A stretch of DNA of 64,000 nucleotides from an uncultured beta proteobacterium. Lineage in GTDB: Bacteria; Pseudomonadota; Gammaproteobacteria; Burkholderiales; Gallionellaceae. Location of the stretch: positions 21,576 through 85,575 of the forward strand of contig CAVQPO010000001.1 in NCBI GenBank assembly GCA_963714805.1, read 5' to 3'. The position numbers and the translations under genes were made by a program. This document shows, piece by piece, positions 3,140-24,123 of this stretch. Within the stretch, counting starts at the first letter, position 1, and each line of letters opens with the position of its first letter. The notes under the pieces were generated by a model. The model worked only from the letters and a program-made list of their open reading frames with translations. It was not told where the DNA came from and searched no databases.

Positions 3140-3214
3140 AACCCCTCCAAACCTCCCCTTGTCAGGGGAGGCTTAAAGGCTTCCCCCCTGACAAGGGGGG
3201 ACTGAGGGGGGTTG
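3140..3214. repeat. GC-rich nested palindromic element (outer stem plus two inner hairpins); likely bidirectional terminator between convergent genes
   Basis: AACCCCTC...GAGGGGGGTT outer stem. Inner hairpins are CCTCCCC-ttgtc-AGGGGAGG and CCCCCCTGACAAGGGGGG. Same architecture as 37035-37111. Confidence 0.5.
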
Positions 3215-3234
3215 GCTTTTGGTGTTACATGGTA

Positions 3235-3489
3235 CTAGTTCTGTTTTTCTTTATCTTTGTTCTTTTTTATTTCGCGGGCATTAATTTCAGCAAGTCTTTC
3301 TCGCCATTCTGCCAGTTGCTCGGCCTCAATTTCAAGCTGTATTGCTAACGCTTCTAACGGGATCAACTTATGATCATCAAGTCTTCGTCCCAGCTTGCCA
3401 CCCATTCGCGAAAGCAAATGCTCAGCTTGAGATTTAGTTAATTTTTTAGCCTTTAACAAATACTCTTCTGATGGTTCTCTCTTCGCCAT
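3235..3489 (-). CDS. Hypothetical small Lys/Glu-rich protein
   Basis: 84-aa ORF with a coiled-coil-like, charged C-terminus. No family recognised. Confidence 0.35.
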   Translation of the reverse strand: MAKREPSEEYLLKAKKLTKSQAEHLLSRMGGKLGRRLDDHKLIPLEALAIQLEIEAEQLAEWRERLAEINAREIKKNKDKEKQN

Positions 3490-3729
3490 GTTTTTAGAAC
3501 AACTATAAATATTGGGGCAATAATATTACGCCTTCCCAATCCAAGTGTACAAAGAAAATTGTTTCATAATTATTTCTGTTCACTGCGGCGCAACCCGCAC
3601 ATATTTCCTAATCATGGTTCTGACAGCCTGCTCATTCCATCACCAATAGTTTGTTTGACGCACACTGATTTAATATTGCTGTAACAAATTGTTGCTAGTT
3701 TAATCACTTTACATATAAGGGCTGCCATC

Positions 3730-6787: not shown

Positions 6788-6852
6788 ATGAATCTGGGCA
6801 ATTCTAATGACATTACATGACAGGATTATGAAACCAACCGGGTTTATTATAA

Positions 6853-6993
6853 GGGAACCTCTATTAATTCAAATTTCGTTGCCATACAGCGTTGCTCATA
6901 AAAAATTACTCCTAACATATCATACATATGCGTCGTCACAATTTTTTACTCGCGCCTTGTCTGGCTTAGAAATTTGAATTAATAGAGGTTCCC
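6853..6993. mobile_element. MITE-like element, copy 1 (about 141 bp, about 25-bp terminal inverted repeats)
   Basis: GGGAACCTCTATTAATTCAAATTTC ... GAAATTTGAATTAATAGAGGTTCCC. Flanked by a direct ATAA/ATAA. Interior is homologous to 19681-19821. Confidence 0.6.
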
Positions 6994-7078
6994 ATAAATC
7001 TCGAAACGGCAGATTGACATGCAACTTTCTTGCTGATTCCGCATAACCATACTCGAAAAAGCACGCGCAAGAGGCATG

Positions 7079-13700: not shown

Positions 13701-14036
13701 ACAAATTGCCGCACCTTGAATGTCGATCACGGTCATGTTCGCCGATTTTGGTAATAGCTCGTGAAAATCCCATAACACTTGGTCGCAATGCTTCCCATCC
13801 ATCTTGCGGATGAGCGGTCGTTTTGACATCTGCACCAGAAAATCTCGGTTTGACATCAAAACACGTTCAACATCCGATGAAGCGACCACGGCAAGAGTGC
13901 GCGCAGTAGATTTTGCCGCCACGATACTTTGCTGCGCATCGTCGTAAATCGTATAAACAAAGATCGCGACCATAGGCAATGCAATGGCCGTCACCAGTGC
14001 CATAAGCTGTACCCGAATTGTGAAGCGCAATTTCAT
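10725..14036 (-). CDS. Sensor diguanylate cyclase/phosphodiesterase (periplasmic Cache-like domain, HAMP, PAS, GAF, GGDEF, EAL)
   Basis: 1103 aa. TM - periplasmic domain - TM, an intact GGDEF (RQGGDEFVV) and EAL (EALVRW...DDFGTGYSS). Confidence 0.9.
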   Translation of the reverse strand: MKLRFTIRVQLMALVTAIALPMVAIFVYTIYDDAQQSIVAAKSTARTLAVVASSDVERVLMSNRDFLVQMSKRPLIRKMDGKHCDQVLWDFHELLPKSANMTVIDIQGAAICSAVPQPGGKPMQLAQTEWVKRSLAEDGFVVGEPFFGPITGRWVTVLTYPIHNDQGKKIGFLGLPLDLALYEPNLSKAPLIPGTIMGVITADETIVWRNLETEKWVGKNLRSNENIQKILALKDGEIEGVGIDSIPRFYAITPVKGADWYAYVGIPTSVVYSQLRATLLRNAVLGLISLLLILGVAWLIARRIARPIRTLALASRAIRQGRHEVRAELAGPPEIMEVAQEFNEMLNVRLQAEAALRESEANLSEALKIARLGHWEYEVANDEFVFNDQYYSLHHTTAGQVGGYRMHAADFAKRLVHPDDTQLVGEHIKRALNANDPDFFSQAEARIVCADGEIRWVLVRFKIEKNDQGVTTRLIGANQDITERKVAEQTQKQLNRALKLLSDCNTTLVHAVEEGKLLSEICRLVVETGGYRMAWVGFAEQDAEKSVHPVAQHGDDNNYLGSLMISWADTEHGHGVTGTAIRTGLTDINPDYQTNPRSALWREIALASGLRSSIGLPLIGKKRVLGALTIYSSIPDSFSQEEVTLLEELASDLAYGIETLRTRVEHEAAERKLEFLAHHDLLTGLPNRLLLRDRFEQATAQADREHSGVAVLFLDLDNFKQVNDTLGHNYGDQLLVRVVERLRGCLRDADTISRQGGDEFVVLLPHLSEMRAISGIAHHIIDVFADSFEIENYSINTTFSIGISLYPDDGREFDILLKNADTALYQAKDSGRDTYRFFSEKMNIDAQEQLHLQGQLRNAVKNNEFLLHYQPQVDIGSGRIVGAEALVRWQHPEIGLIPPGKFIPLAERSGLIIQMGEWVLNEACRQAQFWCENGQPLVMAVNLSALQFKRGNLFETVVNALKQSGLPASQLELELTETILLQDIDVVIKTLRSLKEMGVKLSIDDFGTGYSSLSYLKQLSVNKLKIDQSFVRDLAEDPDSAAIVRAIIQMGHTLQLSVIAEGVENDAQLAFLRNYGCDEVQGYLFSRPVIAAEFVKLFDNIRE

Positions 14037-14517
14037 TTAGCTAATACAATCGAATCGGATGTTGGATCGCTGGACATTTTTAAGCAGTGGATTAAATTTG
14101 AGGTACGTCTTGTCTTGAGCCTATGCTGTGAGACCAACTTATCCGTCAGGAAATTCACCCATTTTCGTATTGTGACACCACCTGCTCCTGCCGGGGCGCG
14201 AAATTTTAACGCGTTCTCTGTTAACACCTTATGGGTGAATATAATAAAAATGTCGGATTGCGAATTTGCTCTTTTGCTCTCTTGCGATCAGTAATGTCTC
14301 GATACTAGAGGAGCGTTCGTCATTGTGAACCGATCTCAGGAAAGCTGCCAGTGGCATAAAACAATTTGCACCGCCGCGAAGATTCTATGAAATTAAGTTA
14401 TCCCCGGCAGAGCCGGGTGACTACCTCATTTATTTACCCACGTCAAGTATCACGGAAGGCCATCCGTTCTGGACTTCATTCAGGCTCAATCACTGCCTCA
14501 ATGGTCGAGGGCTCGAC

Positions 14518-16770
14518 TCAGAGATGCTTGCGATAAAAGTCCAGAAAATCGTCAGCCGGTAATGGGCGGCTGAAGAAGTATCCTTGAATCTGGTCGCAGC
14601 CCATTGTTTTGAGCAGTTCGAGTTGTTCGGCGTTTTCCACGCCTTCGGCCACGGTGGATAGATTGAGCGCTTGCGCCATCGCCACTATTGTCCTGGCAAT
14701 CGCCACATCGTCGGTGTTAGCCGGGGTGTCTTTGATGAAGGCGCGGTCTATTTTTACACAATCAATCGGGAAGCGCTTGAGATAGGCGAGCGATGAGTGT
14801 CCGGTGCCAAAATCGTCAAGCGCCAAGTGGATGCCACGGTCGTGAATTGCGCCCAGCAATTTTATAACTCCCTCCGGATCATCCATCACCATGCTTTCGG
14901 TGATTTCCAGTTCCAGCGAATTGACGGGAAGCCCCGTTTCGGCAAGCGCAACATCAATTTCGTCCAGCAGGTTGGCGGAACGGAACTGCCTTGCGGAGAG
15001 ATTAACCGCCACCCGCAACGGGCGCAAACCAGCTTGCTGCCACTCGGCGTTTTGACGGCATGCTTCCCGCAATACCCAGCGTCCAATCGCAACAATTAAA
15101 CCGGTATCTTCGGCAACGGGTATGAACTCAACCGGGGAAATCATTCCGCGTTCCGGGTGTATCCAGCGGACGAGTGCTTCCATGCCGAGCAAACGACCTG
15201 TCATCGTATCCACCTTGGGCTGGTATTGCAGCCGCAGTTCGCCATTTTCCACCGCATGTTGCAGGTCGGCTGCCAAGCGCAGAACCTTGGTAGCGGCAAG
15301 TCCCATGGCTTCGTCATAGACCGCAAAATCATTGCCGCCCGCTCGCCGCACCCGGTTGCAAGCAGAGGCCGCGTGTTGCACCAGTGTTTCTGCCATGCTC
15401 GCAGGATCGTTGCAATCGTCGCCACCCATGATCGCAGTTCCGATCGACAGCGTTGAGAACAACTCACGCCTTTCAACGTGAAGTGGCAGCTGGGCAGCAC
15501 CGAGCAGTTGCTCGGCACGTCGCTGCGCTTCGGTCAAGTCGCCTGACCAGCGCACCAAAACGAAGGCATTGCTGCCGAAGCGGTAAAGTTTCTCTTCTTC
15601 GGCGTTGGTTCGATCATTCAAACGACTGGCAACCTTGACCAGCCAGCGCTCGGTATCAACCGCACCGTAGCTCTCAAAAATCTCCTGTTCACGGTCAGGG
15701 GCGATCATCATCACCGTTCCCTCCCGCTGCCGGGTAAACGCTGCGCTCAGATCTTTACGCAGGCGGTATTGGTTGGGCAGTCCGGTCGCGGGATCAAAGA
15801 ACGCCTGGTAGGCAAGCTTTTCCTCGGCTTGCTTGCGCGCGGTCACATCCTTGATGTAAACGTGGAACTCGGAAAAGTCTGCCAAATGCGCCACTGTGCA
15901 TTCGAGGGTATGTTTGCCATGCGCATACTCAAATTGCATGTTGGAAGACGGTGCAGCACTGGTTTCAACTAAACGCTGGTGCAAATCGGTGGGCAGCAAT
16001 TGTGCCGATTCCGTGGGTGCGAGATTCAGCCGAGCCAGCAATTCGGCTGTGGCGGGGTTGGCATAGAGCACCTCGCCCCAAGCACCAAGGCGCAACACCG
16101 GGTTAGGATCACGTTCGGGGAACATCGCAAGTCTGCGGCGTTCCAATCCCTCGCGGATGATGGCGACGACATAGTAACCGACAAAAAAAGCGACGCCAAA
16201 AATCAACACCGAGAAACCGATGACCCAGCCCACCATGGTAGATACGCTGTTCTGGGAATCCGCCCCCAGATTGTCAACCGCCTGCTGGTTAGCTGACGAC
16301 ATGGTGGCGAGAGTCGCCTCGATCTGCCGCACCTTGGGCTTGACAAGCGCCAGAAGCGCGCGAGCCTTGTCCCAATCTACATTAGCGCTGGCAAGGGTTG
16401 CGGATAGAACATCGGACAACTGCCCCAGTTCCACCAATCGGGTGCGCAACTCAACCACTTGTTCATGTGAGCCGCTGTCTTTTTCGAGTTCGTCGACTAT
16501 CTTGACCAGATGCTGGTCATTAAGAACGCGCTGTGCCTCGAACGATTCTTTGGTAGCGGTAAAAGAATAATATTCATATAGCAGGCGCTCTTCGTCGGCA
16601 ATGACACCGCGCAGTTCGCCGATACGCTGGGACAGAGGGAGTTTTTCGGCTATAAACATCCGGTTCACGGATTGTACCGAATCGCCCAGAGAGACGATGC
16701 GGGCTGACACCGCAATGCCGACGGTCAAAACGAGCAGAAAAGCCCACCATATTCTGCGCTGAAGCATCAC
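14518..16770 (-). CDS. Membrane GGDEF-EAL protein with a degenerate cyclase site
   Basis: 750 aa. EAL domain is intact (EALVRW, DDFGTGHSS). The GGDEF position reads RFGSNAF. Confidence 0.85.
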   Translation of the reverse strand: MMLQRRIWWAFLLVLTVGIAVSARIVSLGDSVQSVNRMFIAEKLPLSQRIGELRGVIADEERLLYEYYSFTATKESFEAQRVLNDQHLVKIVDELEKDSGSHEQVVELRTRLVELGQLSDVLSATLASANVDWDKARALLALVKPKVRQIEATLATMSSANQQAVDNLGADSQNSVSTMVGWVIGFSVLIFGVAFFVGYYVVAIIREGLERRRLAMFPERDPNPVLRLGAWGEVLYANPATAELLARLNLAPTESAQLLPTDLHQRLVETSAAPSSNMQFEYAHGKHTLECTVAHLADFSEFHVYIKDVTARKQAEEKLAYQAFFDPATGLPNQYRLRKDLSAAFTRQREGTVMMIAPDREQEIFESYGAVDTERWLVKVASRLNDRTNAEEEKLYRFGSNAFVLVRWSGDLTEAQRRAEQLLGAAQLPLHVERRELFSTLSIGTAIMGGDDCNDPASMAETLVQHAASACNRVRRAGGNDFAVYDEAMGLAATKVLRLAADLQHAVENGELRLQYQPKVDTMTGRLLGMEALVRWIHPERGMISPVEFIPVAEDTGLIVAIGRWVLREACRQNAEWQQAGLRPLRVAVNLSARQFRSANLLDEIDVALAETGLPVNSLELEITESMVMDDPEGVIKLLGAIHDRGIHLALDDFGTGHSSLAYLKRFPIDCVKIDRAFIKDTPANTDDVAIARTIVAMAQALNLSTVAEGVENAEQLELLKTMGCDQIQGYFFSRPLPADDFLDFYRKHL

Positions 16771-16882
16771 TTACCCTTTCTGGCAACTCTAACTATTGCA
16801 CGGCGGATGACCGGTATCCATCAAGACACCGGTCATCGCGTATCAGAAACTAATTGGCTGCAATGCTTATCAAGCCTATCGC

Positions 16883-17173
16883 TTAATACTTTCCGGAAAC
16901 TTCGGCCTTGTATCCGGCTGGTTCAAGCTTGCCTCCAATTTTTTCGCAGCTTCCCTTCGGAAGAGGTATGAAATCGTTGGGGTCATTATCAACCTTTGAA
17001 TGCCCGGCGCAGGAATGCTTGCTCTTATTGCTGTTGCAGGCATTCTGGCCCGCCTTGGCAACACCCCAACATTTCTCCTCGTCGGCAGCATAAGCAGAGA
17101 TGGCTGAGGTAGTGATGCCGAGCGCGAGCAAACTGGCAACGGCAGTGTTGATCAGTGTGTTTTGATCTTTCAT
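16883..17173 (-). CDS. DUF2282-type Cys-rich secreted peptide (bufferin-like RiPP precursor, copy 2)
   Basis: Signal peptide ...AISAYAA, then [25 protein letters not shown]...KGSCEKIGG. 4 Cys with spacing C-x10-C-x8-C-x20-C. Confidence 0.8.
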
Positions 17174-17273
17174 GATCTGAATCTCCTTTACAAGTTGAAC
17201 AATTTATCCTGCACAGTGCAGATACTTTACCATCTTGAACATGGATTGTCCGCGAAGAGTATGCACGAACTGT

Positions 17274-17732
17274 CTAAGCTGATTTTTGTAATTGCCTTTC
17301 CAGCCAGAAATCCACAGACCATTGCCAGCGGCTTATCAGCAGTAACACAGCCAGCAACAACCCCCAATATAAGTGCTGGTTTAGACCAGCCTCACTCAAT
17401 CCCGAGTAATAAGAAATGACCGCGACCAGGTTAAGGATGAACAACCCCGCTGCCGCGAAACGCCCGAACAGCCCAAAAACCAGCAGCACGGACAGTCCCA
17501 GCTCGGCACTGGTGGCTAGCCATGCCGCAACCTCAGGTGGCAGCAGCGGCACCTGATACACATCGTTGAACAGGTATAGCGTGCTATCCCAACTTTGTAT
17601 TTTGGTCAGCCCGGATTTAAAAAATACGTTAGCCAGTAATAGCCGTATCCCAAGGTCTAACACGGGTGCCAGATATTCCGGCAGGTGGGAAGCGGCGTAG
17701 TAAAATCGGATCGGACGTAATAACTTATTCAT
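17274..17732 (-). CDS. DoxX-family membrane protein
   Basis: 152 aa, 4 TM, with the LLLANVFFKSGLTK-type motif. 8-nt overlap with the upstream gene. Confidence 0.8.
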   Translation of the reverse strand: MNKLLRPIRFYYAASHLPEYLAPVLDLGIRLLLANVFFKSGLTKIQSWDSTLYLFNDVYQVPLLPPEVAAWLATSAELGLSVLLVFGLFGRFAAAGLFILNLVAVISYYSGLSEAGLNQHLYWGLLLAVLLLISRWQWSVDFWLERQLQKSA

Positions 17733-18510
17733 GGCGTTTACTCAAACTGAAATCGATCAGTACATTTTGTGCTACCAGATTTAACAACGCGGCTTGCAAG
17801 TCAAAGTCCGGATGGCGTTCCAGCGTGGCAGTGGTTACCGCACCCAGCGGAACTCCGGCCTGTATGGCTTCCAGCCACGAGGCACCGGATTCCGTCTGTT
17901 CGCTGACCAGAACAACATCATTCTTGCGGCTGACCAGAGCTCTGCATGAACCACTATCGAGATCAATGCGAAAATTGTCGGGCGCGCCGGGCTGGTGGGC
18001 ATGCCAGATTGCGGCAATCGGATAGCGGGAGCGCACCAGATGACACGCAGGGTGGGTGTGCAGGATCAGGTCGGGATATTGCTCGGGCGGTATCATCCCC
18101 AGCTTGCCGATATCCAGCGTGGCTTCATCGTCTGAGAAATAGGCGCAGTGGCAGGCCCACTCCAGAGCCGCAACATCCGGCAGATAGGCCAATCCTTGCG
18201 CAGGTTCGAAGGCAGCCAAAAAGTCTGCCATTCCCGCGCCGTAGTGATGCAGGTTGCCGCTACACGAAAGATGCTGCCCGATGAATTGCCGCGTCATGTG
18301 CCGGAAAAAATCCTTGCCCACGAGTTGCTCGATGACCGGATATGCCCCCGCAAGTGTATCGTGCAGATTGCCGCGATAATTGTTTAGATAAACTTCAATG
18401 GCAACGGAGGCAGAATAATTCCGGTAGTTCGAGTCGATCTGCGACGATATCTCCTCGCCAAGCACGATGGCGCGGGCGAAATCGGACAAGTCTTCGGCCA
18501 ACTCACGCAT
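17725..18510 (-). CDS. DUF2063-family protein (MNIO partner / putative precursor-recognition subunit)
   Basis: 261 aa with N-terminal YRNNYRGNL-like motif (YLNNYRGNLHDTL) and LPDVAALEWA. Position is directly after the DUF692 gene. Confidence 0.75.
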   Translation of the reverse strand: MRELAEDLSDFARAIVLGEEISSQIDSNYRNYSASVAIEVYLNNYRGNLHDTLAGAYPVIEQLVGKDFFRHMTRQFIGQHLSCSGNLHHYGAGMADFLAAFEPAQGLAYLPDVAALEWACHCAYFSDDEATLDIGKLGMIPPEQYPDLILHTHPACHLVRSRYPIAAIWHAHQPGAPDNFRIDLDSGSCRALVSRKNDVVLVSEQTESGASWLEAIQAGVPLGAVTTATLERHPDFDLQAALLNLVAQNVLIDFSLSKRHE

Positions 18511-19336
18511 GACTATCCTCCAACCGTAGCTGTGCTTTAGCCGCTTCGCCCATCAGCACGGACAGCGCTGGAATGTCGCTGTCCCATTCGATCAGCGTAG
18601 GACGCGGCCCGATGTGTTGCAAGGCAAACTCATACAATTCCCACACCTCGGGATAGACCGGATGGTCATGGGTATCTACCAGGCAGCCGTCCCTTACGCT
18701 GTATCCGGCCAAGTGATATTCCTTCACGGCTTCAGCAGGAATGGTATCGATGAAAGCTTCGGCATCCACGCCGAGGTTGCGCATATTTACATACAGATTT
18801 TCAACATCGAACAAAATGCCGCAGCCAGTGCGCCTGGTCAGCTCTGCCAGAAACTCACCCTCGCTCATTTCGCTGTGCGAGAAAGATAAATAGCTGGAGA
18901 GGTTTTCCACCAGCAACTGGCGGCCAAGTTTTTCCTGAACCTGCTCCACGCGACTTGCCACATGTGATAACGCCCCATGCGTATACGGAAACGGCAACAA
19001 ATCGTTGATAACCATTCCTGCCGCAGTATTCCAGCATAGATGCTCCGACACGACGGCAGGCTGCACCGCATCGCACAGGCGACACAAAGCTGATAAATGC
19101 GTCTGATCAAGAGGGGCGGACGAAGCCAGCCCCATACCCACACCATGCAAGCTGACTGGATAATGTTCGCGCACCTTGAGCAATGTGCGCAGGGGCGCGC
19201 CGCCCCCGAAAAAATTCTCGCTATGCAATTCCACCCAGCCGAGCTCGGGCAGTGTTTCCAAAACTTCGCAGTAATGAGGTGCCCGCAACCCAATACCTGA
19301 TGTGCATGGCAAGGTATGTTTTGCGGGCGTATTCAT
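18503..19336 (-). CDS. DUF692 / MNIO-family (MbnB-like) enzyme
   Basis: GIGLRAPHY...VELHSENF...SLHGVGM...SEHLCW... are TIM-barrel MNIO motifs. ATG at 19336 overlaps the precursor stop (TAATG). Confidence 0.85.
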   Translation of the reverse strand: MNTPAKHTLPCTSGIGLRAPHYCEVLETLPELGWVELHSENFFGGGAPLRTLLKVREHYPVSLHGVGMGLASSAPLDQTHLSALCRLCDAVQPAVVSEHLCWNTAAGMVINDLLPFPYTHGALSHVASRVEQVQEKLGRQLLVENLSSYLSFSHSEMSEGEFLAELTRRTGCGILFDVENLYVNMRNLGVDAEAFIDTIPAEAVKEYHLAGYSVRDGCLVDTHDHPVYPEVWELYEFALQHIGPRPTLIEWDSDIPALSVLMGEAAKAQLRLEDSHA

Positions 19337-19602
19337 TACATGGCTTTCAGGGTGCCGCCGGCGATCTTCTCGCAAGTGCCTTTAGGCACGGCGACAAAAT
19401 CCATGGGGTCATTGTTTTTGGTGGCCTGCCCAGCGCAGGAATGCGCGCTCTTGTTGCTTGAGCAGTCATTCTGGCCCGCCTTGGCGATACCAAAGCATTG
19501 CTCCATTTCCATTTTCTTGTTGGCAGCACTTGCGTTGCCGCTGGACAGACCCAGCACCAGTAAACTACCAATTGCGGCGGAGAGCATATGACGGTTGTTC
19601 AT
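19336..19602 (-). CDS. DUF2282-type Cys-rich secreted peptide (bufferin-like RiPP precursor, copy 1)
   Basis: Signal peptide ...SGNASAA, then [25 protein letters not shown]...[10 protein letters not shown]. Cys spacing is identical to copy 2. ATG at 19602 follows AAAAGGGG. Confidence 0.8.
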
Positions 19603-19680
19603 AGTAAAACCCCTTTTCGTAGGTTGATTTAGTTTAAGAGCTAGCCCCAACCATAGGTCAGAGAAAGTCGGCTCCCTTTA

Positions 19681-19821
19681 GGGAACCTCTAAAAATCCAA
19701 TTTTCGTCGCGATACTGCGTTGCTCACAAAAAGTTACTCCTTACATATCAAACATATGCTGCGTCGTAATTTTTTGTTCGCGCCTTGTCTAGCTTAGAAA
19801 ATTGAATTTTTAGAGGCTCCC
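19681..19821. mobile_element. MITE-like element, copy 2
   Basis: GGGAACCTCTAAAAATCCAATTTTC ... GAAAATTGAATTTTTAGAGGCTCCC. Flanked by a direct TTTA/TTTA. The interior aligns with copy 1 along its whole length. Confidence 0.6.
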
Positions 19822-20017
19822 TTTACTTCGAAATGCGCGGACTCAAGTTCATCTGCCTTTCATCCACACACCTGCATATTCAGGATTAATTGAAAAAAAG
19901 TTACATGATAATTTTAAAAATTTTGGATTGCCGCTACTTTGCTGTTGTCCAACATTCCCCAAAAAATCTTATTGCAAAGATGCCCTAAGCCTTGCACATG
20001 TATGAAAATTAGATAAA

Positions 20018-20401
20018 TCATGCAAAAACGTTCAAAAGGCTTCCAATAGTTCCGCTCGACAGAGTCAAGACATTGGATGACATATTGTCAACTTTACCGC
20101 TTACGCTTAGGGCTGATATTGTCGAATCTTTATTTTTATAGGAAGGTGTATTTGCATTAGTTAAGGTCGCACTAATACTAGGTTTCGCGGCATAAGTAGT
20201 TTTTATTCGCTGCTCTAGCTCGCTAATTTTATTCGATAACTCTGATATTTTGGCTTTCCCTTCAGGGGTTGTGTGCGATGGACAACTGACCCAGTCGGCA
20301 AGTTGTATTTTGCATTTATCAAGCTGAGTTTCGAGATTGGCTGTTGATAGGCCAGCTCCCATGGGGTTGGGGTATGTGGATATTCCGATGGCGCTCGACA
20401 T
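20018..20401 (-). CDS. Hypothetical Ser/Thr-rich protein in an AT-rich patch
   Basis: 127-aa ORF with a short coiled-coil-like segment (KISELSNKISELEQRI). No confident family. Confidence 0.3.
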   Translation of the reverse strand: MSSAIGISTYPNPMGAGLSTANLETQLDKCKIQLADWVSCPSHTTPEGKAKISELSNKISELEQRIKTTYAAKPSISATLTNANTPSYKNKDSTISALSVSGKVDNMSSNVLTLSSGTIGSLLNVFA

Positions 20402-20743
20402 GCGGTTCTCGCGAAAGGCTTATTGATATAGCGCGGGAAATTGCAAAAGTAAGTGCTCCAGCTTGGGCATCTGGAGCAGTTGATTGTATGAAACTTGCGC
20501 CGGATTGTATCGGATGCGCACCGATACTGCCATTTGATCGGGCGATGCGGCGCTGGTATTTGACGGCGCGCCCCTACCAAGCATGAAACACAAGCTGCCG
20601 TTGAATAAATACCTAATGATGAGTTTTATAGTTAGCATGAAGACACTCCTTGAAGTCTGCATAACCAGTTATCATTCGTTCTGTCTGACTATTTATTCGA
20701 ACAAAGCCGAAAAATGGTTACATAAAATATTCACGGAACTTGT

Positions 20744-21283
20744 GTGACAGATACAACTGACAGTCTTGAAGTGCTGATGAAGCAGGCTCTGAATGGTGAC
20801 CAGCGCGCCTACGCTGGCCTGTTGCGGGAAACATCGCGCTTTCTTCGCCCATTCCTGGCGAAACGCCTCAGCTTCACTAACGAAGTGGAAGACCTGTTGC
20901 AAGAAATCTTGATTTCCATTCATAAAGCCCGCCACACCTACGATGGCAACCGGCCCTATAAACCTTGGGTCTACGCCATTGCCAAATTCCGTTTGCAGGA
21001 TTATTTGCGTGCGCATTATTCCGATCAGTTGCACCATGCCATCGAATTGTCCGAGGTGGAAGAAAATTTGTCTGAATATGTAACCGAAACCGCCATCAGT
21101 TACGAATCAATTAGTGGGGAAGTCCAAAAACTTCCCGAGAAACAGGCGACCATCCTGCAACTGATGCACCGGGATGGCTACACCGCCAAAGAGGTGGCGG
21201 AAAAGATGGGCATGAATGAGTCTGCCGTGAAAGTCGCGGCGCATCGCGCCTACAAGGTATTGAGAAACAAACTGGAAAGATGA
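20744..21283 (+). CDS. ECF (group IV) sigma factor, SigF-like
   Basis: Region 2 (DLLQEILISIHKARHTYD) and region 4 (LPEKQATILQLMHRDGYTAKEVAEKMGMNESAVKVAAHRA). GTG start. Confidence 0.85.
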   Translation: MTDTTDSLEVLMKQALNGDQRAYAGLLRETSRFLRPFLAKRLSFTNEVEDLLQEILISIHKARHTYDGNRPYKPWVYAIAKFRLQDYLRAHYSDQLHHAIELSEVEENLSEYVTETAISYESISGEVQKLPEKQATILQLMHRDGYTAKEVAEKMGMNESAVKVAAHRAYKVLRNKLER

Positions 21284-21918
21284 TGGAAGATATCGAAGTG
21301 CTGATAGCCAGGCTGGCAAAAGATACTGCGGCAGTAAAACCTGCCCCGCATCCTTACATGCTAAGCCTCAAATGGATGGGATGGGCTGCAGCCTACCTCA
21401 TTCTGTCGCTTATGCTTTCCGGCATTCGCCCAGACCTGATGTCAAAACTGCATGAGCCATTGTTTGTTGCTGAAATAGCTGCACTTGTTGGCATCTTCTT
21501 CGCCACGACTCTAAGCTCGGCATTGCTGTCGTTTCCCGATATGCATCAGATGCCCAAACTGGCATTGGCACCGACAATTGCATTTGCGCTATTTGTGCTT
21601 GTATTGTTTCTTGCATGGCAGGCCGATAAACCGCAATCTCCGCTACCTGTCCACAGCTTCGAATGCACTGTCAGCATTACTTTGTTTTCACTGTTGCCAG
21701 CAGGTTGGACATTTTACGCAATGAGGAAATTTGCCAGCACGCATTATCACTGGGCAGGTGGCATCGCCATTCTTTCCGCCTTTAGCGTCGGGGCATTGTG
21801 GCTGAGGCTGCATGAGATAAATGACTCAATCGTGCATGTTATCGAGTGGCATTATCTACCCATGATAGTTTTCGGCATGGCTGGCTTGTGGATTGGGAAA
21901 AAATTATTAAAGTGGTAA
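21280..21918 (+). CDS. NrsF-type (DUF1109) membrane anti-sigma factor
   Basis: 4-nt overlap with the sigma gene. N-terminus is IEVLIARLAKDTAAVKP followed by 6 TM segments. Confidence 0.75.
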   Translation: MMEDIEVLIARLAKDTAAVKPAPHPYMLSLKWMGWAAAYLILSLMLSGIRPDLMSKLHEPLFVAEIAALVGIFFATTLSSALLSFPDMHQMPKLALAPTIAFALFVLVLFLAWQADKPQSPLPVHSFECTVSITLFSLLPAGWTFYAMRKFASTHYHWAGGIAILSAFSVGALWLRLHEINDSIVHVIEWHYLPMIVFGMAGLWIGKKLLKW

Positions 21919-21993
21919 TTTGGGATAAACGTTTCACAAATTTACAATAATCAGTAGCGAAATAAACATCACCCATTCCACTTAATTATTCAT

Positions 21994-24123
21994 TCAGCTA
22001 ATCTTGATCTTGGTGATAGCCTGCTGGATACGATCAGGAGTCATCGGCAAACGTAACATGCGCGCCCCGGTGGCATCAAAAATCGCATTGGCTATCACCG
22101 CGCCAGTTGTCGTGATCGGCGGCTCTCCCCCACCCTGCGGTGCCAGATCGTCATTCTTGACCAGCACCACGTCGATTCGGGGAACCCATGAAAAGCGCGG
22201 AATTTCGTAAGTGTCGAAATTCCGATCAAGAATCTCTCCGCCCAGAAAACGCAACTCCTCTGCCAAGGTGTATCCCAGCCCCATGGTAATGCCGCCTTCA
22301 ATTTGCATTTTTGCACCTTCCGGATTCACGACGATGCCCATGTCCTGTGCGCAAACCACCCGAATTACTTCCACGCTGCCATTTGCCTGATCCACCTTAA
22401 CCTCGGCCATGGTCGCGACGTAGGTTCCGGCGTCGATGCTGCACGCCATCCCGAAGCCTCTTTTGCTCGGCGAAACAGCCGCCTTCCAACCGAAGGCATC
22501 GGCAGCGGCTTGCAAGACTCTGCGCATCCTGGCATCCGTCAGATTGCGGAGCCGGAACGCGAGCGGATCCATTCCTGCCGCTGATGCCATCATGTCAATT
22601 TGCGACTCGATGGCAAATATGTTCATGTTTGCGCCCGGTGCCCGCCACGGCCCCACGGCAAACGGATGAATACTTGCCTTTGCGGTGGGAGTGCCGTACG
22701 AAGTTTCTCCGGCGGTTCCAATCCGCACATTCGGGATATCGTAGCAAGGGGTTGCCCCGCGTTCTCCGGCTGCGTAGATGGAGCTATCCCATAGTGAGAC
22801 TCTGCCATCAGCTTCAATTCCCGAGACGATTTTTACCACCGAGGCGGGATCAAATGTGTCGTTGAAGAACTCTTCTTCGCGGCTCCAGGCCACTTGCACG
22901 GGTTTGCCCGTGAGTTGTGCCAGCCGTGCCGCTTCGACGGCTTGGCCGTCGGCGCTCTTACCGCCGAACCCGCCGCCGAGAAAAGGGGTTATCACGCGTA
23001 CATTTTTTTGATCCAGATCGAGAACCTTGGCGATGCGGTCACGCGTCGGAAATGGGGTCTGCGTCGATGCCCACACCGTTGCCATCCCGTTGTTGATTTC
23101 AACCAGCGCCGCGTGTGGCTCCATGGCCGCATGAGCGACATATCCTTTTTGGTAGGTCGTCTCGAACAAGCGTGCGACACTGGCATGCGCCGCTTTAAGA
23201 TCACCCCGCTCTGCCAAGTTTTTCAACGGGGGAGCCTGTAACAAGAGGTGATCAAAGATACTTTCAGAGTTCACCTTCGCTTCCGGCAAATGCCAGTCCG
23301 CTTTGATGCGCATGAATGCGACAGCGGCAGCTTCGGGATCGGCGTGCAGCACGGCAACCAAGTCACCATGCTTAACCAAGGTGATCCCCGGCATTTTCTC
23401 GGCATCAGAGGTATCCAGTTGCGCCAAGGTTGCGCCATGCATCGGCGGACGCAGTATTCGCGCATACAACATGCCGGGAATTCTGATGTCGGCAGCGTAT
23501 TTCGCAGCCCCCGTAACTTTCTCAAGTGCGTCGAGCCGTTTCGGCGAAGCGCCCATCACACTAAATTCAGAGGCCGCCCGTAACACGGCTTTCTTGTCTA
23601 CCAGTTGTGCGATTCGCGCCCCCTTGGAAAGTTCGCCGTAACTGACTTTCCGGTCAGGTTCGCCTTTCACATACACAACACCGTCCTTGACCAGAAGTTT
23701 GTCATGCGGCACGCCCAGCTTCCCCGCAGCCAGCGTCATCATGGTTGCACGAGCCTGTGCGGCGGCAGCGCGCAATGCCGGCCCGAACATGCGGGTGGTC
23801 AGTGAGCCGAACGTCCCCCTGTCCCACGGGCATTTGTCGGTATCGCCCAGCACCATGTCGATAGAAACCAGCGCAACGCCCAACTCTTCGGCCACCATTT
23901 GTGCCTGTGAGGTCAACACGCCCTGCCCCATCTCGATCTTCCCGGAAAAAACCGTGACGCGCCCGTTCTCGCCGATCAACAGATAGGCGTTGAAATCCTC
24001 CGGGTAAAGAAGTTTCGTTGCTTGCGAGAAAACCTGCAAAGGGCCAAGACCGACGAAGACGACAATACCGCCCCCCACCAGCTTGAAAAAACTGCGACGA
24101 CTCATGCCAGCAGAAGTGTTCAT
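21994..24123 (-). CDS. Molybdopterin-binding subunit of a two-subunit aldehyde/isoquinoline-type oxidoreductase (IorB-like), Tat-exported or anchored
   Basis: 709 aa with a twin-arginine motif SRRSFFK. EMGQGVLTS and GGGFGGK motifs. Confidence 0.85.
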   Translation of the reverse strand: MNTSAGMSRRSFFKLVGGGIVVFVGLGPLQVFSQATKLLYPEDFNAYLLIGENGRVTVFSGKIEMGQGVLTSQAQMVAEELGVALVSIDMVLGDTDKCPWDRGTFGSLTTRMFGPALRAAAAQARATMMTLAAGKLGVPHDKLLVKDGVVYVKGEPDRKVSYGELSKGARIAQLVDKKAVLRAASEFSVMGASPKRLDALEKVTGAAKYAADIRIPGMLYARILRPPMHGATLAQLDTSDAEKMPGITLVKHGDLVAVLHADPEAAAVAFMRIKADWHLPEAKVNSESIFDHLLLQAPPLKNLAERGDLKAAHASVARLFETTYQKGYVAHAAMEPHAALVEINNGMATVWASTQTPFPTRDRIAKVLDLDQKNVRVITPFLGGGFGGKSADGQAVEAARLAQLTGKPVQVAWSREEEFFNDTFDPASVVKIVSGIEADGRVSLWDSSIYAAGERGATPCYDIPNVRIGTAGETSYGTPTAKASIHPFAVGPWRAPGANMNIFAIESQIDMMASAAGMDPLAFRLRNLTDARMRRVLQAAADAFGWKAAVSPSKRGFGMACSIDAGTYVATMAEVKVDQANGSVEVIRVVCAQDMGIVVNPEGAKMQIEGGITMGLGYTLAEELRFLGGEILDRNFDTYEIPRFSWVPRIDVVLVKNDDLAPQGGGEPPITTTGAVIANAIFDATGARMLRLPMTPDRIQQAITKIKIS

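Follow-up and report, generated by a model that had tools for sequence, protein, structure and literature searches.

A trailing Buf1/DUF2282 precursor gene at the 3′ end of a bufferin cluster in Gallionellaceae, conserved and with a probable promoter of its own

Genes at the locus

The window (the whole stretch of DNA that was analysed, 64 kb) belongs to the genome, 70% complete, of an iron-oxidising Gallionellaceae bacterium. The locus is a cluster of the bufABCD bufferin (Buf1) type with an extra precursor gene at its 3′ end. The genes for the leading precursor (A), MNIO, DUF2063 protein, DoxX protein, trailing precursor (A′) and GGDEF-EAL protein follow each other in this order, all on the minus strand. 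The features are given below according to their position.

14518..16770, minus: GGDEF-EAL membrane protein (Pfam), constant downstream neighbour of the trailing gene.
16883..17173, minus: bufA′, trailing Buf1/DUF2282 bufferin precursor, 96 aa (ORF, ATG start).
17274..17732, minus: DoxX protein, bufD-like (Pfam DoxX).
17725..18510, minus: DUF2063 partner protein, bufC-like (Pfam DUF2063).
18503..19336, minus: MNIO bufferin maturase, bufB-like (Pfam MbnB_TglH_ChrH, 338 bits).
19336..19605, minus: leading precursor bufA, DUF2282, 89 aa (ORF, Pfam).
19875..19904, minus: predicted SigF-type operon promoter, slightly degenerate GTAACT-N16-TGAA, aligned with GTAACC-N16-CGAA of relatives.
20744..21918, plus: ECF sigma factor (20744-21283) and NrsF anti-sigma factor (21280-21918) (Pfam), divergent from the cluster.

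The MNIO scores 360.5 bits against the NCBIfam equivalog MNIO_BufB (cut-off 310), and its probable ATG overlaps the stop codon of bufA (TAATG). DoxX and the trailing gene are separated by 100 nt (17174-17273), in agreement with the original prediction of a copy located after DoxX behind a 100-nt upstream gap. A strongly conserved TGTAACC-N16-CGAATA is shared by relatives upstream of the leading gene; it matches the SigF-type −35/−10 pattern of Caulobacter, the buf1 cluster of which presumably has the same GTAACC-N16-CGAA type of promoter ahead of its leading gene. The SigF-type site of the window is split from leading bufA by a MITE of ~143 nt (19680-19822, minus). The Rfam scan of positions 14000-22000 (E ≤ 1) gave no match.

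Sequence features of the trailing precursor

17183..17189, minus: Shine-Dalgarno AAAGGAG, 9 nt before the ATG; AAAGGA is kept in orthologs.
17087..17173, minus: predicted Sec signal peptide, residues 1-29, with AxA cleavage motif (read from the sequence).
16928..17077, minus: DUF2282 core with C35, C46, C55, C76 and the paralog-specific CNSN... signature (Pfam, invariant columns, ortholog alignment).
16886..16930, minus: C-terminal tail, conserved in its first part (GGKLEP) only.

The gene at 16883-17173 (minus) encodes a real member of the DUF2282/Buf1 family that is conserved and under purifying selection. The protein matches Pfam DUF2282 (PF10048) over residues 33-82 with 78.4 bits (cut-off 22.4) and shares 52% identity (E = 3e-29) with the leading precursor (19336-19605). 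Direct counting gives C35-x10-C46-x8-C55-x20-C76 and the same spacing in the leading copy. The second precursor paralog with identical Cys spacing, put forward from the sequence alone, is thus confirmed by ORF, Pfam match, identity and Cys count, and the ribosome binding site claimed with it is found where expected. The four Cys are invariant in 40 aligned family members and in all intact orthologs. Given its Pfam match, its four Cys and its association with MNIO, DUF2063 and DoxX, the trailing precursor is a Buf1-type precursor, with a chemistry that is expected to be that of the family.

The N-terminus consists of a charged N-region and a 19-residue hydrophobic stretch ending in AYA|A, with a helix at residues 4-17 in the AlphaFold2 model. 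This model, built from a 40-sequence alignment, is of moderate confidence (mean pLDDT 61); a small beta-rich core holds the Cys, and the tail has low pLDDT and no secondary structure. No relative in the PDB was found by sequence search, nor by Foldseek with this moderate-confidence model.

The tail had been regarded as one of the distinctive traits of the second copy. It is present, and in the window genome it is just 9 residues longer than that of the leading copy; it carries no weight as a distinction, being neutral beyond GGKLEP and normal for the DUF2282 family, in which tails of 8-25 aa past the fourth Cys are usual, including those of leading-copy orthologs in relatives. Some leading copies of relatives bear Met-rich tails.

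Conservation, phylogeny and selection

Relatives were collected by whole-genome searches and from fetched loci; the samples are non-exhaustive and include many fragmented MAGs. The comparative survey of trailing DUF2282 genes that had been proposed with the original prediction found the same arrangement in many Gallionellaceae species of several genera: at least 19 species, from five genera or more, have a positional ortholog of the trailing precursor. DUF2282 was detected in 76 of the 201 Gallionellaceae genomes sampled. A leading/trailing pair lying 2.4-4.5 kb apart on one contig was found in about 13-14 of these 201, and the trailing type occurs on short contigs in further genomes of the same sample. 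In a search of 401 genomes across the order, the same-contig pairs outside Gallionellaceae were, among the matches listed, tandem only (0.3-0.4 kb apart).

Trailing copies have a signature of their own: CNSN, HSCAGH(S/A)K(V/I)DNDP and a tail opening with GG(K/S/R)L(E/K)P. Leading copies are devoid of it. A maximum-likelihood tree separates the leading copies from the trailing ones, each group being a clade (support 100/98 and 98/93); the names leading and trailing were given according to the sequence signature, and they coincide with gene position. The leading clade, the trailing clade and the single leading precursors of other Burkholderiales form a trichotomy; the tree is compatible with a duplication inside Gallionellaceae or with an earlier one. 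Trailing and leading precursors are old paralogs, and part of Gallionellaceae has the trailing one fixed as the 3′-terminal gene of the cluster.

dN/dS was calculated as the median of pairwise Nei-Gojobori estimates across trailing orthologs, and is given below by region.

Core of the trailing precursor: dN/dS 0.09, dS about 1.3 (saturated).
Signal peptide: dN/dS 0.30.
Tail beyond GGKLEPA: dN/dS about 0.98.

The core is thus strongly constrained, and the extra tail is a retained appendage without sequence constraint. With such a core and with four Cys in every intact ortholog, the gene is live; the frameshifts or lost Cys that would mark a decaying duplicate do not characterize the orthologous loci.

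Two genomes have additional copies. In G009 (L031, 4496-9698), the trailing precursor is accompanied by two leading ones that are near-identical and lie 1.6 kb apart, which makes three in all. G049 (L105 and G049:C3) has two full A-B-C-D-A′-GGDEF/EAL blocks on different contigs; its contamination of 6% makes two strains a possible source of these blocks.

Natural variants and maturation enzymes

Three natural variants are relevant to the proposal that the MNIO of the cluster also takes the trailing precursor as substrate.

G002 (same genus, 99% complete): the trailing gene is the sole DUF2282 match of the genome. Of the leading gene (L039, 4200-4330), only the first ~65 nt, which contain a frameshift and a stop, and the last ~25 nt are left, and these are now contiguous; the Cys core is gone, and the start of the signal peptide is fused to the end of the tail. 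The deletion that took out the leading gene also disrupted the SigF motif of the operon, and the cluster has no DoxX. MNIO (91% identical), DUF2063 (75%) and the trailing gene (81%) are intact.
G093 (99% complete; L104, about 3160-3600): beside the GGDEF-EAL gene lies a chimera, leading-type at its N-terminus and trailing-type at its C-terminus. It is a pseudogene (in-frame TGA and frame break). The search for MNIO in this 99% complete genome found none.
G005: the trailing gene is on another contig than bufA-MNIO-DUF2063; MNIO is present in the genome.

Since G002 maintains the enzyme pair, a substrate is implied, most obviously the trailing precursor. In G093, recombination between the paralogs apparently removed MNIO-DUF2063-DoxX, after which the orphaned precursor would have decayed. 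A sole intact precursor beside MNIO/DUF2063 in one genome and a pseudogene in another where MNIO was not found argue, on comparative grounds, for the second-substrate proposal. The two central Cys are the modified ones in Buf1 (PMC11626156, PMC12452194), and the residues flanking them are nearly identical in both paralogs.

The same comparison bears on a reading of the paralog as a redundant or decaying duplicate without a function of its own, to which hardly any credence can be given. It would fit the neutral evolution of the tail and the frequency of tandem and extra precursors in bufferin clusters (PMC12452194), but the core is under strong constraint at saturated dS, the Cys are kept in every intact ortholog of at least five genera and the paralog has its own conserved signature (CNSN, CAGH, VDNDP). 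Moreover, where one copy decayed beside intact enzymes (G002), the leading copy is the decayed one. Decay of the trailing gene is contradicted by all these data (dN/dS, Cys, signature, G002).

Upstream region of the trailing gene

17224..17252, minus: predicted sigma-70-like promoter element, CGGACA (17247-17252), N17, TGG + TAAAGT (17224-17232, of which the hexamer is 17224-17229) (conservation).
17209..17221, minus: palindrome CTGCACTGTGCAG, just downstream of the −10 element.

The spacer between DoxX and A′ contains a conserved block: xxGACA, 17 nt, TG(G/T)TAAA(G/A)T. Of 17 orthologous upstream regions, 11 contain ATG(G/T)TAAA(G/A)T; in some of the remaining 6, inspection by eye suggests an A/T-rich hexamer resembling a −10 at the corresponding position. 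GACAA is located at a fixed spacing upstream of the −10 element in most species; the −35 spacing is 22 nt in the L046 ortholog. The distance between the −10 element and the ATG is usually 67-68 nt; in the window, where 18 nt are deleted, it is 50 nt. Compared with the sigma-70 consensus, CGGACA-N17-(TGG)TAAAGT has 8 of 12 matches, which is below the threshold of the promoter scan, hence it was not called.

This block is kept although synonymous sites are saturated, and is therefore a phylogenetic footprint. It has the form of a sigma-70 extended −10 promoter and would act as such. Most likely, the trailing precursor has its own promoter, and the likeliest organization is a small transcription unit that can also be reached by read-through of the operon. 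The best evidence comes from G005, in which the trailing gene lies directly behind a divergent ORF and its spacer still has the form CTGACA-N17-(TGC)TAACGT. Read-through cannot supply transcription of the trailing gene there.

The SigF-type motif GTAACC-N16-CGAA was found neither in 17174-17273 nor in the orthologous regions. The separate regulation suggested by the original prediction is backed by the element described above, which is conserved, predicted to be sigma-70-like, different from the leading SigF-type promoter and kept in G005. The palindrome cited as a cue for it is present at 17209-17221, but this cue does not hold. Palindromes with 6-bp arms are expected at about 0.2 per 100 nt, and the window contains 25 of the 6-1-6 type, such as CTGCACTGTGCAG. 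The orthologous regions do not have it, and loosely similar GTG(T)GC strings are found in few species only. It is rejected as an operator, being neither conserved nor statistically unusual. RNAalifold predicted no base pair in the 5′ UTR of the trailing gene, and no conserved RNA structure is indicated there.

Alternatively, the trailing gene could be the fifth gene of a SigF-dependent operon without any promoter of its own; it would still encode a second substrate, and the upstream block would be a regulator site or act in translation or mRNA processing. The gap between DoxX and the trailing gene has no terminator-like structure (its fold is no better than those of shuffled sequences, z = −0.12), and the element resembles the consensus only weakly, so that the scan did not call it; both points favour this organization. 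Against it, G005 keeps the element behind a divergent ORF, where read-through is impossible, and in G002 the SigF motif of the operon is disrupted by the deletion of the leading gene. It is considered unlikely.

Downstream neighbour of the trailing gene

16806..16837, minus: very stable hairpin after the stop codon, GATGACCGGTGTC...GATACCGGTCATC (dG −26.7 kcal/mol, z = −5.2).

This hairpin, located between the trailing precursor and GGDEF-EAL genes, has a stem of roughly 14 bp and no U-tract; its arms are unique in the window. 3′ hairpins are also found in same-genus orthologs, and weaker ones in other genera. It is possibly a 3′ end or a stabiliser. In six loci of other genera, a conserved TATAAT-like element precedes the GGDEF-EAL gene.

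Orthologs of the GGDEF-EAL protein were searched for in the 201 Gallionellaceae genomes with the N-terminal 300 aa as query (at least 63% identity). They were found in 22 genomes. An intact trailing precursor gene is immediately upstream in 18 of them; the other four correspond to one pseudogene chimera, one contig end and two genomes (G196, G181) without trace of a precursor. In G005, the trailing gene and the GGDEF-EAL gene are 44 nt apart, away from the buf genes. This pairing could be inherited synteny within one family.

The same-genus orthologs, in G001-G003, are about 640 aa long and match residues 1-207 only of the 300-aa query. They seem to be devoid of the ~110-aa linker (PAS-like?) found in the window and in other genera.

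The GGDEF-EAL protein has a degenerate GGDEF site and a periplasmic helical domain; its periplasmic part gave nothing significant against Pfam and NCBIfam. A signalling pair could be imagined, in which this domain would sense Cu-loaded or Cu-free trailing bufferin and link copper to c-di-GMP turnover. Such a pair is a speculative and decidedly improbable proposal; if true, a RiPP metallophore would be a co-sensor, beyond a role as buffer alone.

The same neighbourhood is relevant to the reading of the paralog as an MNIO-independent, unmodified periplasmic four-Cys protein, maybe an accessory or ligand of the GGDEF-EAL sensor. The promoter-like element of the trailing gene, the presence of one and the same GGDEF-EAL ortholog next to it in 18 of 22 genomes and next to a pseudogene in another, including the unlinked pair of G005, and the report that stand-alone precursors may go unmodified (PMC12452194) are consistent with it. 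However, G002 retains MNIO and DUF2063 with the trailing gene as sole precursor, and G093, the only checked genome with a copy in which no MNIO was found, has a pseudogene. Two genomes hold the GGDEF-EAL ortholog without any precursor, the residues beside the modified Cys are common to the leading copy and the synteny is perhaps mere inheritance within one family. This reading is accordingly rated as improbable.

Comparison with known systems and proposed function

Bufferin 1 (BufA1, CCNA_03363) is encoded by the buf1ABCD cluster of Caulobacter vibrioides, which is associated with SigF/NrsF (Leprevost et al., PNAS 2024, PMC11626156). Features shared with this cluster: a four-Cys DUF2282 precursor with predicted Sec signal peptide; an identical order of the MNIO, DUF2063 and DoxX genes; adjoining ECF sigma/NrsF genes. 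Features that differ: the Caulobacter cluster has one DUF2282 precursor, whereas a second, diverged paralog follows DoxX here; this paralog has a sigma-70-like element and a His two residues past the third Cys.

Some bufferin BGCs have tandem precursors, some MNIOs maybe have more than one substrate and some precursors are single-gene transcription units (Microb Genom 2025, PMC12452194). The present locus resembles these BGCs in having more than one precursor per MNIO. The copies reported there are tandem or unlinked, whereas the second copy here occupies the distal end of the operon and, unlike them, belongs to an old, separately evolving lineage, restricted to Gallionellaceae among the genomes sampled. 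The gig (gold-induced genes) operon of Cupriavidus metallidurans, as cited in PMC11626156, has a DUF2282 protein gene as first gene; according to that description, it is the same four-gene cluster type in a betaproteobacterium, is induced by metal stress and has a single leading precursor. A literature search joining DUF2282 and Gallionellaceae found, among the papers listed, none containing DUF2282.

The favoured interpretation, held to be quite probable, is that of a functional second Buf1 precursor, which would be modified by MNIO, would chelate copper and would be expressed from a probable promoter of its own besides read-through. By analogy with Caulobacter Buf1 (PMC11626156), the following steps are proposed.

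Transcription: read-through from the SigF-type operon promoter and initiation at the probable sigma-70-like extended −10 promoter would both contribute.
Modification: in the cytoplasm, the MNIO/DUF2063 pair would convert C46 and C55 to 5-thiooxazoles.
Export: the precursor would be exported by Sec and cleaved after AYA29.
Disulfide: a C35-C76 bond would form.
Function: the 67-aa product would chelate periplasmic copper.

With its own promoter, the trailing gene would be expressed to some extent independently of the ECF stress response. The two copies may divide the labour, one being induced by SigF and the other transcribed separately. One consideration counts against this scheme: if the maturase genes are SigF-dependent, a self-promoted paralog could be made without its enzymes.

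The lineage-restricted trailing paralog, its distinct promoter-like element and the loss variants tying it to the enzymes are new; they refine a known system and do not constitute a new mechanism. The bufferin family of copper-binding RiPPs is very large and was described only recently; the locus bears on whether one MNIO serves several precursors. The variants G002, G093 and G005 provide a comparative argument for a diverged second precursor kept by selection and dependent on the same enzymes. These data could be used for picking substrates for MNIO biochemistry and are relevant to metal homeostasis in iron oxidisers.

Region upstream of the leading gene

The MITE at 19680-19822 has terminal inverted repeats of ~23 nt and is related to about 30 distinct loci elsewhere in the genome (70-98% identity); a further copy is located in the window at about 6852-7006. 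At its end is a terminator-like hairpin (19670-19687) that could attenuate transcription of the operon in this strain.

The long 5′ UTR below the SigF-type promoter is well conserved in relatives L042-L055 (GGATGAAAGGCCG...GAACTTGAATCCGTGCATTTTG..., about 100-170 nt upstream of leading bufA); it may contain a small ORF or act as a regulatory RNA. The homologous region of the window, interrupted by the MITE, has no Rfam match.

orf127 (20018-20401) encodes a Ser/Thr-rich protein of 127 aa that gave nothing significant against Pfam and NCBIfam. It is found beside the buf cluster in same-genus genomes, with 71% identity in G002. In the 64-kb window, GTAACC-N16-CGAA has a single strict match (20696-20721, minus); it points toward orf127, which may belong to the SigF regulon.
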